Below, piece after piece: positions 4,916-63,007 of a stretch of DNA of 64,000 nt. Numbering within the stretch: position 1 is the first letter of the stretch; each line of letters opens with the position of its first letter. The notes below the pieces were generated by a model, which made no database searches, was not told the DNA's origin, and was given only the letters and a program-made list of their open reading frames with translations. The DNA comes from an archaeon UBA543. Lineage in GTDB: Archaea > Undinarchaeota > Undinarchaeia > Undinarchaeales > UBA543. Position numbers and translations under genes: made by a program. The stretch is taken from contig DAPM01000011.1 in NCBI GenBank assembly GCA_002502135.1, positions 7,736-71,735 of the forward strand, written 5' to 3'.

Positions 4916-5763
4916 CAATATAACAACAACCCCGGCCAACATCAACCCAGCACCAACTAAATGCTCAGCAATATGATCTTCTTTATAAATCAAATAAGCC
5001 AGCACAGTTGAAATAATAATACTTGTTCTTTTAACAGAAATCATATACACAGCATCCACCATACTAATTGCAATAATGTGAAAAAACATCATCCCTGCTA
5101 ACAAAGCACCAAGAACAATCAGCAAGCCAGGCTTTTTGAAAATCTTCTTAATATTATTCGATTTCTTAATAGCAATCGGTATCAACAGCAATGCAATCAG
5201 GGGTGCATAAAACCCTGCAAAGAACATTGTGCTTGTCTCCAATATCACTTTCTTTCCAAGAACAGAAGTCACAGAATAAACAAGAGCCACAATAAGAAAC
5301 AAAACCGACCCCCGCTCCTCAAAAATCGCCTTAAACGGAGCAAACAACCCCCTTCTCCAGCTCTTAATATTCAAAACATAAGCTCCAGCAACAACAAGCA
5401 GAACTCCACCTGCCCCAAGAAGCGTTGGAACCTCTCCCAAAATCAAAAACCCAGTCAAAAGTATAAACACTGGACTAAATGAAAGGAACGGCATAGTCAA
5501 TGCAATTGGAGAATTCTGTATTCCTTTCAGAAACAACAGGATTGCAAGAATATCAAGCGGCGCCAGAATTATCAAAGTTTTCCAGAAAACTGGCCCAAGT
5601 GTTGGCATAGGGATAAAAAACAAAATCGGAACTAAGAAAGGCAGAGCAAACAAATTCTTCCCAAGAGCAACCATATACAAATCATCAGTCTTCAACAACT
5701 TCTTTGCAAGAACCGCAGATACACCACTAAATAATGCAGCTCCAAGCGCAAACAACAGCCAAA

Positions 5764-5767: not shown

Positions 5768-7447
<1,680 letters not shown>

Positions 7448-35627: not shown

Positions 35628-36719
35628 TTAAAATATCCTAACAATCCGCAATTCCCCTGCATTCTCATTCCCAATCAAGCCTTTCTTCACTCTGTGCAGA
35701 CACAAAGTATAATCAGCTTTAACTGCAGCGCCAGTAAAATCACCATTATCTGGATTCACACCAGAAGGCACATCCACTGAAACCACAGGAACATCCTTTC
35801 CATTTATCCACTTAATTGCAGAAGCAAGCGGTTCTCTGGCATCTCCTCGAAGTCCTGTTCCACAAATAGCATCAATAATAATATCAGCTCCAAATCCGCC
35901 AATACTCTCAGGAGCAAGAATTGTGTAAAATTGTATTCCAAGCTCTTCAGCTCTTTTGAAATTCTCTTTAGATAATTCAGTTTTCTGCTCTTCAAAAACA
36001 GTCATTTCAACTTCAACACCAGCTTCTTTCAAGTATCTTGCAGCAACAAACCCATCTCCGCCATTGTTCCCGGATCCACAGAACACAACCACTTTCTTTC
36101 CATTAAGCTCGAAATTATTCTGAACAAAATGAGCAATTCCTTTTCCAGCTTTTTCCATTAAATCCTTTTTCGGAATTCCTCCGCCTTCTTCCAGTGCAAT
36201 CATGCCAGCAGTATCAATATAATGCTCCAGTTCTTCGTGCTGCATTCTGAATCGCTGAACTTGAATTGCATCATTTCCCCATCGCTTTTTCCAGCCAATT
36301 AATTCTTTCTTGAATTCAATTTCCTTGTTATTATCAATCAGGTTGTCAGCATAAGAAACAATCTTCTGCTCAACAGTAATTGGTAAAAAGTCCTCTTCTG
36401 GAAGTCCAAGCTTTGTTGTTTCGCTTTTTTTGATTCCAGCACCAACATGCCGTTTTGCAATCTGTGCAACTTCTTCAGGTGCTCCAAGCTCTACCAACTT
36501 CTCGTAACCCAATAGTCCGTGTTTTATCGTATGCTCGTCAGCGCGTCCAATATCGTGAAGCATTGAACCAGTATCAACAAGACCTCTGTTAACTTTAATC
36601 CCGTCAGCAATCAGCGCATCTGCCAGCTCAAGAGCCTTATTATTAACTACTTTGCAGTGATTCTGAAGCTTTTCAGGATAGTTTATGTCTTTCCAAATCT
36701 TGCTAATATTTAGTTTCAT
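35628..36719 (-). CDS. HD-domain phosphohydrolase fused to NAD(P)H-hydrate epimerase (YjeF_N/NnrE) domain
   Basis: I prefer the ATG at 36719 (MKLNISKIW). HD signature strings are LHDIGR and HVGAG. The C-terminal half has CGSGNNGGDGF and DAICGTGL. The track N-terminus (to 36890) is read-through of the repeat element. Confidence 0.72.
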   Translation of the reverse strand: MKLNISKIWKDINYPEKLQNHCKVVNNKALELADALIADGIKVNRGLVDTGSMLHDIGRADEHTIKHGLLGYEKLVELGAPEEVAQIAKRHVGAGIKKSETTKLGLPEEDFLPITVEQKIVSYADNLIDNNKEIEFKKELIGWKKRWGNDAIQVQRFRMQHEELEHYIDTAGMIALEEGGGIPKKDLMEKAGKGIAHFVQNNFELNGKKVVVFCGSGNNGGDGFVAARYLKEAGVEVEMTVFEEQKTELSKENFKRAEELGIQFYTILAPESIGGFGADIIIDAICGTGLRGDAREPLASAIKWINGKDVPVVSVDVPSGVNPDNGDFTGAAVKADYTLCLHRVKKGLIGNENAGELRIVRIF

Positions 36720-36760
36720 TTTAGTAATTGTAAATGAGTAGCCACGAGCAGCTCCAAACC

Positions 36761-36914
36761 TCTGCTGATATTTGAATTGTTGAAATTGGTTAATTGGTTC
36801 TTGACTGGCGCTCCAGAGTGCAGCGCGTACTGCATGAAGCTCCATTCGCTTCGCGAAGGGGCTTAAACAATTCAACTGAAGTTGGTTCAAGCTGTCTGAG
36901 TTAGTTACCTATGA
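36761..36914 (+). mobile_element. ~154-bp repeated structured element, copy A
   Basis: The 88-nt core 36801-36888 is identical at 81/88 positions, without gaps, to 61608-61695. The left arm ctgctgatatttgaattg and right arm tgagtta are shared. It is bracketed by a 26-nt direct repeat (36735-36760 and 36915-40). The strand is inferred from G:U pairs. Confidence 0.7.
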
Positions 36915-36915
36915 T

Positions 36916-36991
36916 TGGTAGCCCCGAGCAGATTCGAACTGCTGTCCCAAGCTCCAGGGGCTCGGATGATTGACCACTACACCACGGGGCT
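36916..36991 (-). tRNA. tRNA-Gln (anticodon CTG), CCA encoded
   Basis: Minus strand reads AGCCCCG TG GTGTAGTGGTCAATCAT C CGAGC CCCTGGA GCTTG GGAC AGCAG TTCGAAT CTGCT CGGGGCT A CCA. It has an A1:U72 pair as in archaeal tRNA-Gln. Position 33 is C rather than U. Confidence 0.8.
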
Positions 36992-41514: not shown

Positions 41515-41543
41515 CTCCGCGGATATTTGAATTGGTTAAATTT
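41515..41543 (+). repeat. solo left end of the 154-bp element (copy C, truncated)
   Basis: ctccgcGgatatttgaattggttaaattt matches 61567-61595 at 28/29 positions. It lies in the 41-nt gap between two convergent genes. Confidence 0.7.
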
Positions 41544-41553
41544 TTAGAATAGC

Positions 41554-57217: not shown

Positions 57218-57292
57218 TGGCAGGCCCGCCGAGAGTTGAACTCGGGTCTGTAGCTCCGCAAGCTACCATGATATCCACTACACTACGGGCCC
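57218..57292 (-). tRNA. tRNA-Arg (anticodon GCG), CCA encoded
   Basis: Minus strand reads GGGCCCG TA GTGTAGTGGATATCAT G GTAGC TTGCGGA GCTAC AGAC CCGAG TTCAACT CTCGG CGGGCCT G CCA. Confidence 0.85.
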
Positions 57293-57404
57293 ATTTTCCA
57301 ATGACGCTTGGCATACGAGTTTTTCACACTTAACCAAGCGGATACGAGCCGCGCAGCGGCCTCTCGCCCTCCGTGAGAAGACGGAGCTACTACTACGGGC
57401 CCAT
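57293..57404 (-). other. duplicate of the tRNA-Arg(GCG) 5' end followed by a ~95-nt GC-rich three-hairpin block
   Basis: ATGGGCCCGTAGT occurs at 57404-57392 and again at 57294-57282. Hairpins lie at 57369-57386, 57348-57360 and 57305-57340. There is no D-loop GG, T-arm or 3' acceptor, so it is not a tRNA. Confidence 0.6.
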
Positions 57405-57969: not shown

Positions 57970-58047
57970 TACCACAGTTACCCTCTCCTTATCCCAATAT
58001 TTTAGTAACCAAACTTTATTAAGTTTTGTATAGTGGAAAATAAAAAG

Positions 58048-60080: not shown

Positions 60081-60190
60081 TGGTGGGCCCAAGGGGATTT
60101 GAACCCCCGATTTGCAGCTTAGAAGGCTTGCGGAAGGCGAAGAAAAAACTCGCGCCCCTTGCCGCCTTATCCAGACTAGGCTATAGGCCC
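60081..60190 (-). tRNA. tRNA-Arg (anticodon TCT) with 32-nt intron in the anticodon stem (non-canonical position), CCA encoded
   Basis: Exon 1 (60190-60160) reads GGGCCTA TA GCCT AGTCTGGATA AGGC G GCA. The intron (60159-60128) reads AGGGGCGCGAGTTTTTTCTTCGCCTTCCGCAA. Exon 2 (60127-60081) reads GC CTTCTAA GCTGC AAATC GGGGG TTCAAAT CCCCT TGGGCCC A CCA. Splicing restores the stem GCAGC/GCTGC. Confidence 0.75.
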
Positions 60191-60930
60191 ATTTTTGTAA
60201 TAACAAAAGGGCTTAACTCCCTTTTTAATATTTTGTATCGCTGTTTTATTGAAGTATTTGGGGGTACAAAGCCATATCTCTTCCATATTTTATACTTTGT
60301 TAAATATACTGGATTCTTAAAACCAATTAAGTCTATCCATTTTTCTACGCGTGCACATCCTTCAACGCAAATAGAATATGCCACAGTGTTATTTCCCCCA
60401 ACTCTTTTATGTAATCTTGTAAAATATTTTATTCCTAATTTGTCTAACATTTTGCACATATCTTCAACCAAAATTTTAGCAACACATTTAATCTGAATTC
60501 TTGGGTAGTTATGATATTTTCTTTTAAATTCAATATATTTCCCATATCTCTTATCAAAATTTAAACAACCATCACCATCAGCAAAACCTCGCAAAAACGA
60601 AGCTAAAACTTCAGTATCCTCACTTTCTCTTATCTGTTTTGGAACTCGCATAGTGTATGTTTTATTACCTGGTTTAAAACCAAGATTATTAAAAAAATCC
60701 CCTATCTTTCTATCACAAGTATAAAATCCATAGACACTATTGCTCGTTTTTTCATGAACTCTCAAGATTATTCCAAAGTTATTTAAAAATATTTTTGTTA
60801 AATGATTATCATAGTACTCTCTATCTTCTGTAATATTTCCCCAGATGCAGACATATGCTTTTTGAAGGCAACCATCTGCGCAAAAGATTCCACAGATTTC
60901 TGCTAATTCTGGAGATATTTCAGTTTTCAT
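60181..60930 (-). CDS. free-standing LAGLIDADG homing endonuclease (double-motif)
   Basis: 249 aa and very AT-rich. The two LAGLIDADG-type motifs are GIFCADGCL and LRGFADGDGCL. The last four codons (ATG GGC CTA TAG) are supplied by the first 10 nt of the tRNA-Arg(TCT) gene. Confidence 0.8.
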   Translation of the reverse strand: MKTEISPELAEICGIFCADGCLQKAYVCIWGNITEDREYYDNHLTKIFLNNFGIILRVHEKTSNSVYGFYTCDRKIGDFFNNLGFKPGNKTYTMRVPKQIRESEDTEVLASFLRGFADGDGCLNFDKRYGKYIEFKRKYHNYPRIQIKCVAKILVEDMCKMLDKLGIKYFTRLHKRVGGNNTVAYSICVEGCARVEKWIDLIGFKNPVYLTKYKIWKRYGFVPPNTSIKQRYKILKRELSPFVITKMGL

Positions 60931-61488: not shown

Positions 61489-61566
61489 CCTTTCAGAACT
61501 AGTTGAGGGTTGTTTATAAAGACTATCCTAAACCACTTTAGAACTTTTTTTAGCAATCCTTCATAA

Positions 61567-61719
61567 CTCCGCTGATATTTGAATTGGTTAAATTTGTGAA
61601 TTTATCATTGACTGGCGCTCCGGAGTGTGGCGCGTACTGCATGAAGCCCTATTCGCTTCGCGAAAGGGCTTAAACAATTCAACTGAAATTGGTTCGATTT
61701 GTTGAGTTAACTGTTTTAA
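61567..61719 (+). mobile_element. ~154-bp repeated structured element, copy B
   Basis: The core 61608-61695 is 81/88 identical to 36801-36888. It is bracketed by a 25-nt direct repeat (61542-61566 and 61720-61744, 23/25 identical). Confidence 0.7.
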
Positions 61720-61730
61720 AACTTTTTTTA

Positions 61731-61744
61731 ACAATCCTTTATAA
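61731..61744 (+). promoter_or_regulatory. BRE/TATA-like promoter of the nucleotidyltransferase gene (leaderless spacing)
   Basis: acaatcc tttataa ends 24 nt before the ATG at 61769. It lies inside the right-hand direct repeat of element copy B. Confidence 0.4.
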
Positions 61745-61768: not shown

Positions 61769-63007
61769 ATGATTTCAAAAGCATTGATACTAGCAGCTGG
61801 CGACAACAAGAGAATGAAACCGCTCTCAGATTTGAGAAATAAGTCGCTCCTGCCAGTAGCTAACAAGGCCATAATTTCACGCAGTCTGGCTTCTCTAAAG
61901 CAGGCTGGAATAACTGAAGCAATCCTAATAGTCAATCCTAAAAATGAAGTTGAAAAACAGCTTGGAGCAGAGCACGAGGGAATTAAATTATCTTATACAG
62001 TTCAGCCAGAACCGCTAGGCACCGCACATGCAATCAGCATGGCAAAGGATCAGATTTCTGAAGATTTCTTAGTCCTAAACGGTGATGATTTCTGCAATTC
62101 TGAGCATCTGAAAAATCTATTATCTTCTCACAAAACCAAAGCAACTGTTTCTGTAATTAAAAAAACAGATCCTAAAGGTCTTGGAGTTGTTGAAGTTGAA
62201 AACAATCTTGTTAAAAGTCTGGTGGAAAAACCAGAATCAGCAGAAGGCGAGCATTTTGTCAATATTGGAATTTACGCATTCTCTCCTGAAATATTCGCAA
62301 CAATTGAAACCCTTGAAAAATCTGAGCGTGGTGAATATGAAATCACTGATGCAATAACAAAACTCATTCCTGACGGAGTTTCTGCAATCACAGCAGACTC
62401 TTGGCTTCCAATAAATTATCCTTGGGATCTTCTAATCGCTAACAAACAATTCATTGACGAAATTCCTGAAGATATCAAAACAGAATTTGATCATGGTGTT
62501 ACTGTAAAAGGAAAACTAGTAGCAGGAGCGGGTACTTTTATCAAAGCAGGAGTCTATATTGAAGGCCCTGTACTGATTGGCAAGAACTGTACAATCGGAC
62601 CAAATGCGTTCCTACGAGCTTACACCTGCATTGGCGACAACTGTAAAATCGGTCAGGGAGTTGAAGTCAAGAATTCGATAATCATGGATGGAACTTGCGT
62701 TCCTCATCTTTCTTATATTGGCGATTCTGTAATTGGTAGAAATGTTAACTTCGGAGCAGGGGCCATAATGACTAACCTGCGCCACGACGATCAGAATGTT
62801 CTTGTTTATGTTAAAGGCGTGCAAACTGATTCAGGCCTCAGAAAACTTGGAGCAATAGTTGGCGACACTGTCAAATTCGGTTCAAATGTTGTTGTAACTC
62901 CTGGAAAAAAGATCGGTTCTGGTTCAAGAATCTGGCCAGGCCTTGTGGTTTACAAGGATGTTGAAGAGAATTCTGAATATAAAGGTCAGGCCAGTGAAAT
63001 AAAGTAG
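61769..63007 (+). CDS. bifunctional sugar-1-phosphate nucleotidylyltransferase / left-handed beta-helix acetyltransferase (GlmU-like)
   Basis: 412 aa with N-terminus LILAAGDNKRMKP and GTAHA. The C-terminus has hexapeptide repeats (IG.N..IG.G..V). Confidence 0.82.
   Translation: MISKALILAAGDNKRMKPLSDLRNKSLLPVANKAIISRSLASLKQAGITEAILIVNPKNEVEKQLGAEHEGIKLSYTVQPEPLGTAHAISMAKDQISEDFLVLNGDDFCNSEHLKNLLSSHKTKATVSVIKKTDPKGLGVVEVENNLVKSLVEKPESAEGEHFVNIGIYAFSPEIFATIETLEKSERGEYEITDAITKLIPDGVSAITADSWLPINYPWDLLIANKQFIDEIPEDIKTEFDHGVTVKGKLVAGAGTFIKAGVYIEGPVLIGKNCTIGPNAFLRAYTCIGDNCKIGQGVEVKNSIIMDGTCVPHLSYIGDSVIGRNVNFGAGAIMTNLRHDDQNVLVYVKGVQTDSGLRKLGAIVGDTVKFGSNVVVTPGKKIGSGSRIWPGLVVYKDVEENSEYKGQASEIK

Follow-up and report, generated by a model that had tools for sequence, protein, structure and literature searches.

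A probable small, structured and non-autonomous repeat inserted with target duplication at a tRNA-Gln gene of an Undinarchaeales archaeon

In the 64,000-nt stretch of DNA of a tiny marine archaeon analysed here (the window), a 150-bp block separates a tRNA-Gln gene from the gene of an HD-domain/YjeF_N protein. This block is probably a copy of a small, non-coding, non-autonomous, Undinarchaeales-specific repeat that was inserted in the tRNA-Gln gene with duplication of its target. The element belongs to an undescribed family of small insertions in the reduced genomes of the Undinarchaeales. Copies are present in some and absent from other close relatives, target duplications are found at several of them, and the fold of the family is conserved.

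DPANN archaea, whose genomes are very small, are commonly portrayed as having little mobile DNA. Here, a lineage of this kind has a family of structured inserts of ~150 nt that is gained and lost between close relatives and that leaves unusually long duplications of variable length where it is inserted at tRNA ends and promoters. For an uncultivated lineage, the family is thus a tractable means of following genome dynamics, and it adds a new case to the question of how target duplications of great and variable length come about. Should the conserved fold function as RNA, it would be a new archaeal non-coding RNA, and if the folded RNA itself moves, the family would be the first SINE-like system in Archaea. 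Annotation is affected as well: where these metagenome-assembled genomes show partial copies of tRNAs or duplicated promoters, these are better read as footprints of inserts than as assembly errors or independent pseudogenes.

The tRNA-Gln locus with and without the insert

The coordinates of the features in the window are collected in Table 1. The tRNA-Gln(CUG) gene encodes its own CCA (36916-36918), and its 3' part constitutes the right target copy, which consists of the 5' strand of the T-stem, the T-loop, the 3' strands of the T-stem and of the acceptor, and the CCA plus one base. The right copy may extend to 36910 (ATGA), in which case the trailer is duplicated too. The initial annotation had read the 26 nt at 36915-36940 as the complement of the T-arm/acceptor/CCA end, and this is correct: the segment covers the T-loop, the 3' strands of T-stem and acceptor, the CCA and one further base. 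It had also claimed that these letters recur at 36735-36760, and we find the same repeat, with 19/26 identical positions without gaps and the core gtagccNcgagcag. On both strands of the 64-kb window this is the best non-self match to the 26-mer. By itself, though, the ungapped count barely exceeds background, since 18/26 positions also agree at the 3' ends of two other tRNAs and at one unrelated place. When the 80 nt to the left and to the right of the block are aligned locally, 36738-36764 matches 36918-36944 at 21/27 positions, and the proposed shuffle check was clear, as 0 of 2000 shuffles reached this score. The left copy overlaps with the first 5 nt of the element, CTG being common to the element and the tRNA. 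Its trailer, ACTCA, has no CCA, as in the relatives, where the tRNA-Gln trailers of loci L094 and L098 start with ACTC.

Table 1. Features of the tRNA-Gln and GlmU-upstream loci and of the repeat copies in the window
Feature	Position	Strand	Evidence or remark
HD-domain/YjeF_N (NAD(P)H-hydrate epimerase-like) gene	35628..36719	minus	ORF list; homologs with PF01966 and PF03853
Left, decayed copy of the tRNA-Gln 3' end (displaced original target)	36735..36764		alignments; position of the tRNA end in L102
Element copy A	36760..36909	plus (naming convention only)	covariance model R1 175.7 bits, E 4e-42; absent from the L102 site
Right target copy	36915..36944		flank local alignment; 19/26 ungapped
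Intact tRNA-Gln(CUG)	36916..36991	minus	ARAGORN; Rfam tRNA model 49.2 bits
Solo 31-nt fragment of the element 5' end	41515..41545	plus	nhmmer E 6e-4
Left 30-nt repeat of copy B	61537..61566		27/30 identity; 0/2000 shuffles as high
Element copy B	61567..61713	plus	R1 174.9 bits; between a 167-aa membrane-protein gene (minus) and a GlmU-like gene (plus)
Right 30-nt repeat of copy B	61715..61744		working promoter (TTTATAA), ~25 nt before the ATG at 61769

The insert lies between a D-aminoacyl-tRNA deacylase gene and the HD/YjeF_N gene. The product of the latter has its closest homologs in proteins labelled Candidatus Undinarchaeales, an order of DPANN, and an exact-protein look-up returned no exact match on record. 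Through these homologs the contigs of five relatives were obtained. In L102, the closest available relative, whose HD/YjeF_N protein is 86% identical to that of the window, the tRNA-Gln gene lies 12 nt upstream of the ATG of the HD gene in the same orientation and no block stands between them. The tRNA promoter region and the start of the HD gene can be aligned between the two genomes, the window being longer by ~180 bases, i.e. by the element and the second copy of the tRNA end. The decayed repeat of the window occupies the position of the true tRNA-Gln 3' end of L102, 12-20 nt before the same ATG. The proposed insertion into the tRNA-Gln 3' end with duplication of the target is thereby borne out, and the search for an empty tRNA-Gln site gave a positive answer. 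Nor is the block an ordinary tRNA-Gln trailer, as three of the four other tRNA-Gln loci (L094/L095, L098 and L102) have no block at the 3' end. At the remaining one, L101, the gene order is different and the tRNA-Gln 3' end is directly adjoined by an independent copy that has diverged; a decayed tRNA-Gln end sought beyond that copy was not significant (107/2000 and 1592/2000 shuffles as high).

A second pair of filled and empty sites is found at tRNA-Arg(CCU). In L131 and L132 a family copy lies 11 nt from the 3' end of this tRNA, with its tail towards the tRNA, and the orthologous site of the window (~58020-58046) has the same flanks and no element. Together with the GlmU-upstream locus described below, the presence of the element varies among close relatives at three loci. 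The polarity of each event was judged from one relative only, and the empty site of L102 may alternatively have arisen by precise deletion via recombination between the repeats.

Several observations concern the tRNA-Gln genes themselves. An Rfam scan of the whole window at the gathering threshold missed the tRNA-Gln(CUG) gene, which gives 49 bits when its region is searched alone. Position 33 of tRNAs is a near-universal U. The anticodon loop of the window gene and of its counterparts at L098 8414-8487, L101 196-271 and L102 119-193 is CCCUGGA, so that position 33 is C; the loop of the L094 gene is UUCUGGA. The CCA is encoded only in the window (36915-36918) and in L101 (193-199), both of which have an element abutting the 3' end, and it is not encoded in the block-free tRNA-Gln genes of L094, L098 and L102. 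In the two genes that bear it, the ancestral trailer bases come after the CCA.

Members of the repeat family, their flanks and their fold

The family is ~147 nt long and has eight members in six lineages, namely copies A and B of the window and the copies of L116, L122, L130, L131/L132, L133 and L101. The kinship that had been noted between the block and 61567-61719 stands: copy A is 82% identical to 61567-61713, and both score ~175 bits (E ~1e-42) with the covariance model. As the copies are only ~82% identical even within one genome, there is no sign of recent activity. The initial annotation had placed the block at 36761-36914; an insert between the repeats is indeed there, and we now put the element at 36760-36909. 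Copy A opens with the 5' terminal motif CTCTGCTG, continues with the hairpins H2 (36784-36795), H3 (36808-36826, with the loop CCAGAGUGC) and H5/H6 (36837-36864), and has a conserved tail, CTGAAGTTGGTTC...TGAGTTAG, that stops at 36904, ahead of 5 nt of variable filler. In the family as a whole the 5' end is sharply defined (CTCYGCKG), and the conserved 3' tail, CTGAARTTGGTTC...TGAGTWR, is followed by a few variable bases. The solo fragment in Table 1 (CTCCGCGGATATTTGAATTGGTTAAATTTTT) sits in the 41-nt spacer of two convergent genes.

Further copies, which the initial annotation had suggested looking for, are present both in the same genome and in relatives. A metagenome scan with two motifs common to the L101 copy gave 26 matches, three of which were true: L109, which is the window's own end, and L116 and L122, which come from one ENA assembly. 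A covariance model of four copies (R1) revealed members beside orthologs of the GlmU-like gene. The L130 member lies in the same intergenic region as copy B, and so does that of L133, upstream of GlmU, with a 65-nt hairpin inserted in one loop; the L131/L132 member has a 68-nt insertion at another hairpin tip. The hairpin tips thus accommodate nested insertions of 55-68 nt. These are near-perfect hairpins themselves, located at L133 9788-9843 in the H3 loop and at L131 ~6378-6440 at the H5/H6 tip, and the fetched loci contain no further copies of them.

All copies are intergenic and are found either at tRNA 3' flanks, with the tail facing the tRNA 3' end, or just upstream of promoters. Three of the eight (A, L101 and L131) abut a tRNA 3' end convergently, and the rest belong to the second group. 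A model of all eight members (R2) found no additional copies in 287 kb of DNA of the clade. A scan of a genome collection with the GC-rich 18-mer GCGCGTACTGCATGAAGC returned 67 loci, nearly all in GC-rich bacteria and one in a haloarchaeon, and the second motif was found in 0/67; three scans of viral collections gave chance matches or none. Searches of both loci against Rfam, at the gathering threshold and at E<=10, gave no family match but only tRNA and noise; the noise-level overlaps with the blocks at E<=10 were SCARNA7 (15 bits) and U4 (17.8 bits). A described RNA family was considered and rejected, as no curated model of Rfam 15 matched, including self-cleaving ribozymes, C/D and H/ACA RNAs. 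In the literature we found nothing on such elements in Undinarchaeota.

The GlmU-upstream locus repeats the picture of the tRNA-Gln locus with a promoter as the target. The left repeat of copy B is a duplicate of the GlmU promoter in which the TATA box is degraded (TTCATAA), and it retains the ancestral left context found in L137. The promoter is single in L129, L130, L131, L133 and L137. A family member is present in this region in the window, L130 and L133, and not in L129, L131 and L137; the GlmU of L129 is 95% identical to that of the window. The same region of L129 (15-95), L131 (9865-9945) and L137 (1-112) contains other GC-rich hairpin-like sequences, mutually unrelated by BLAST, and the spot looks like a hotspot for small inserts.

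Flanking repeats accompany copy A (21/27, the tRNA-Gln 3' end), copy B (27/30, the GlmU promoter) and the L116 copy (47/54, ending exactly at a TATA box), and in none of these cases did any of 2000 shuffles score as high. No flanking repeat was found at the copies of L122, L130, L131 and L133, i.e. at half of the family. The left repeat always ends exactly at the first base of the element and the right repeat begins 3-9 bases past the conserved tail; the repeats are therefore target sequence of varying length and not element sequence. Since the other copies are flanked by locus-specific repeats of 30 or 54 nt or by none, the duplication looks like a true variable-length target duplication and not like an attL/attR pair. 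There is no conserved target motif, as the bases before the eight 5' ends differ, and no terminal inverted repeats were seen: the 5' end CTCCGCTGAT and the reverse-complemented 3' ends (e.g. CAGTTAACTCAA) share only CTC/GAG.

The core of the family is made of GC-rich hairpins in which pairing is kept by compensatory substitutions. Folding of the alignment predicts several local hairpins. In the eight members 93% of the cells are paired versus 86% in shuffles (0/500 shuffles as high), and nine base pairs have changes on both sides; slid controls fall to 30-48% paired. The pairing figures are somewhat inflated because the alignment was fitted to the model, and the clearest compensatory changes are those seen in a plain MAFFT alignment. 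H3 and H5/H6 are 97% paired, and examples of compensation are GCGCU/AGCGC to GCACC/GGUGC in L116, UUCGC/GCGAA to UUUGC/GCAAA in L122, and AAGCUCC/GGGGCUU and AAGCCCU/AGGGCUU in copies A and B. The 5' end (CUCYG) may also pair with CRGAG in the H3 loop; the two co-vary in 6/7 copies, which may go back to a single event. The long-range stem H1 (TTGAATTG/CAATTCAA) is invariant in five copies and unpaired in L130 and L133, and we do not rely on it. The well-supported stems (H3/H5/H6) contain 3 G.U and 3 A.C cells, and as the two are equally frequent, the fold could act on either RNA strand or as single-stranded DNA. Folding of single sequences was uninformative on either strand (z-scores -0.4 to -2.3), and no TATA box recurs at a constant spacing to the element. 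That compensatory changes arose after divergence suggests selection on the copies, which suits an RNA useful to the host no less well than selfish DNA.

A 10-codon ATG...TAA frame coincides with H5/H6 at 36834-36866 and 61641-61673 of the window. It would encode MKLHSLREGA in copy A, MKPYSLRERA in copy B and MKPHSLREGA in L116 and L130, and it remains in frame in L131 and L133 despite the insertions. The frame is probably not coding, as 6/7 substitutions are non-synonymous and paired in the stem. A C/D-box reading was likewise rejected, since UGAUGA occurs in L116 only and is not conserved. Directly 3' of the tRNA-Arg(GCG) of L131, at 5609-5700, we noted TTTGAAATTGGTTAGGG and, after it, a GC-rich hairpin (GGTGTCAG...CTGACACC). 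The motif GAAATTGGTT is found there and also twice in the family element and at the junction of element and tRNA in L101, and it may be a shared recognition or processing signal.

The window contains a second, unrelated GC-rich block of ~97-98 nt (57295-57391) directly 5' of tRNA-Arg(GCG). An exact 13-nt direct repeat, ACTACGGGCCCAT, which comprises the first 11 bases of this tRNA and two leader bases, stands on both sides of it (57282-57294 and 57392-57404), and the block opens with a hairpin that resembles an anticodon arm (CUCCGU-CUUCUC-ACGGAG). An 83%-identical homolog is present at L131 13717-13785, 5' of tRNA-Pro and with a repeat of the 5' end of that tRNA; the tRNA-Arg(GCG) of L131 has no block of this type. 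As this block lies at tRNA 5' ends that have been rebuilt, the combination of a small structured insert and a rebuilt tRNA end is recurrent in these genomes. Further along, on the minus strand at 60084-60190, there is an intron-containing tRNA that is detected by Rfam (43 bits) and not by ARAGORN, and the ORF at 60181-60930, which slightly overlaps with it, contains a LAGLIDADG homing-endonuclease domain.

Proposed origin and rival explanations

For the tRNA-Gln locus we propose the following course of events. In the ancestral order the tRNA-Gln gene would have stood directly upstream of the HD/YjeF_N gene, and in the lineage leading to the window genome the element would have entered the T-arm region of the tRNA gene. 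The insertion would have duplicated ~27-31 bp of the target, i.e. the T-loop, the 3' strands of the T-stem and the acceptor, and some bases of the trailer. The copy attached to the tRNA body would keep tRNA-Gln intact and would remain under selection, and the copy beside the HD gene, being useless, would have decayed to its present identity. The element may have been moved in trans by an enzyme that makes wide and variably staggered cuts, or it may have been captured at staggered breaks, and the hairpins might be the feature that is recognised by the mobilising machinery or that serves a function at the RNA level. We favour a trans-acting DNA enzyme, or the repair of widely staggered breaks, as the mobilising activity. 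The insert contains no ORF, and no integrase, transposase or reverse-transcriptase domain was found in ten neighbouring or unexplained ORFs. The data support a small non-autonomous structured repeat and not the remnant of an integrase-borne island.

At first sight, the geometry of the locus (the insert between an intact tRNA and a partial 3' copy of it) is that of archaeal and bacterial tRNA-targeting islands, and the block could be what is left after an integrase had acted on tRNA-Gln: the repeats would be attL and attR, the intact end would come from the element, and the interior with the integrase gene would have been deleted later. The distribution of the encoded CCA, present in the intact copy and missing from the decayed one and from the block-free genes of L094, L098 and L102, could mean an imported 3' end. 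We nevertheless regard such an origin as very improbable. At other loci the same 147-nt block is accompanied by unrelated flanking repeats or by none, which shows that the tRNA fragment does not belong to the element; no integrase is present within the 150 bp or among the neighbours; and the trailer bases past the CCA (TCAT) are common to both copies, L101 also retaining the ancestral trailer after its CCA, which argues against replacement of the tRNA end by foreign DNA. The description of the arrangement as a classic footprint of integration therefore holds for the insertion and the duplication, but it has to be dropped for an integrase-borne island with a fixed att site, as the flanks of the other copies differ. 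That the left repeat is a chance similarity, and the block a paralogous intergenic sequence, has next to no probability: the ungapped 18/26 matches in the window would speak for it, but no shuffle reached the score of the flank alignment, the repeat lies exactly where L102 has its tRNA 3' end, and two other copies have even stronger flanking repeats.

A different view is that we are dealing with a gene family of the host, i.e. a structured regulatory or processing RNA that is maintained by selection and was spread by segmental duplication, the flanking repeats being by-products that restored the tRNA end or the promoter. This we hold to be unlikely, although a good deal is consistent with it: the core is strongly conserved across lineages whose intergenic DNA is otherwise scrambled, compensatory pairs occur in H3, H5 and H6, expansion is confined to hairpin tips, a member is present in the same GlmU-upstream region in three lineages, several copies are preceded, on the plus strand, by A/T-rich TATA-like stretches and followed by T-runs, and the possible pairing of the 5' end with the H3 loop co-varies. 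On the other hand, neither a TATA box at constant spacing nor a conserved neighbour gene accompanies the copies, close relatives differ in presence and absence at three loci, a solo 31-nt fragment exists, the G.U and A.C counts show no strand asymmetry, and H1 is not kept in L130 and L133. As a host RNA gene would leave the arrival of a copy at a new locus with a clean duplication unaccounted for, this explanation is compatible with mobility and not an alternative to it. A retroposed, SINE-like RNA, in which a structured transcript is reverse-transcribed and inserted at staggered nicks, would agree with several features: the 5' end is sharp, the 3' end is ragged and separated from the right repeat by a few unmatched bases, the duplications measure 27-54 nt or are missing, and it is an RNA fold that is conserved. 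We find it improbable, since the 3' tails (TTACCT, CTG and TTTGAAGTA) are neither A-rich nor simple, the sole truncated copy keeps its 5' end and not its 3' end, and no reverse transcriptase was found among the ten ORFs scanned. More broadly, one might speculate that Undinarchaeales harbour unrecognised mobile elements of the structured small-RNA type, in at least two unrelated families at tRNA ends and promoters, which duplicate 13-54 bp of the target and rebuild the gene, and that the moving intermediate is a folded RNA, either by retroposition or by RNA-templated repair. Such an intermediate would explain the sharp 5' end, the ragged 3' end, the variable duplications and the covariation at the RNA level, and yet we consider this wider scheme rather improbable.

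Comparison with known systems

The small non-autonomous repeat that we prefer as an explanation can be compared with several described classes of elements. It resembles tRNA-targeting integrative elements, i.e. tyrosine-recombinase islands and proviruses, in that it has entered a tRNA gene in its 3' part without destroying the tRNA, of which a partial 3' copy remains beyond the insert; the direct repeat of a tRNA 3' segment on both sides of the insert is seen at copy A. However, those elements carry an integrase and use a fixed att core, whereas the 150-bp insert is non-coding and without integrase, and the flanking repeats of its family differ or are absent. With MITEs the family shares its small size, the lack of coding capacity, the multiple intergenic copies, the presence/absence polymorphism (filled and empty pairs at two loci) and the target duplications. 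Unlike MITEs it has no terminal inverted repeats, and where MITE duplications are short and of fixed length, those of the family are long and vary (27, 30 or 54 nt, or none). A parent insertion sequence was not identified in the ~290 kb of the clade's DNA.

As far as the duplications are concerned, there is a likeness to IS1549/IS1634, where long direct repeats of 8-514 bp, varying from copy to copy, arise on insertion, without a mechanistic model (PMC2266710), and the IS1634 family is found preferentially among Euryarchaeota (PMC2266710). These are autonomous elements of 1.5-2 kb with a DDE transposase and terminal repeats, whereas the present element encodes nothing, and its 5' end, CTCCGCTG, departs from the IS1634 terminal consensus C-----YT by a G instead of a T at position 8. 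IS200/IS605-derived elements, which are associated with palindromes and with the guide-RNA ends of TnpB, have a conserved left target motif of 4-5 nt and make no target duplication; here the preceding bases differ and three copies have long duplications.

SINEs and other non-LTR retroposons offer a further parallel, in as much as the family is a structured unit resembling a small RNA, whose 5' end is sharp, whose 3' end is ragged and whose target duplications vary; SINEs, however, have an A-rich tail and 5'-truncated copies, and the family has neither. Some eukaryotic retroelements prefer the flanks of tRNA genes. To our knowledge no element of the SINE class has been described in archaea, and we know of no reverse transcriptase in the Undinarchaeales clade. 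Finally, the Rickettsia palindromic elements and the GC clusters of yeast mitochondria are short, relatively GC-rich hairpin repeats of reduced, AT-rich genomes, which have no recognisable transposase and are sometimes found beside or inside RNA genes. The present family is likened to them by description; they consist of one palindrome, whereas here a multi-hairpin fold is combined with long target duplications.
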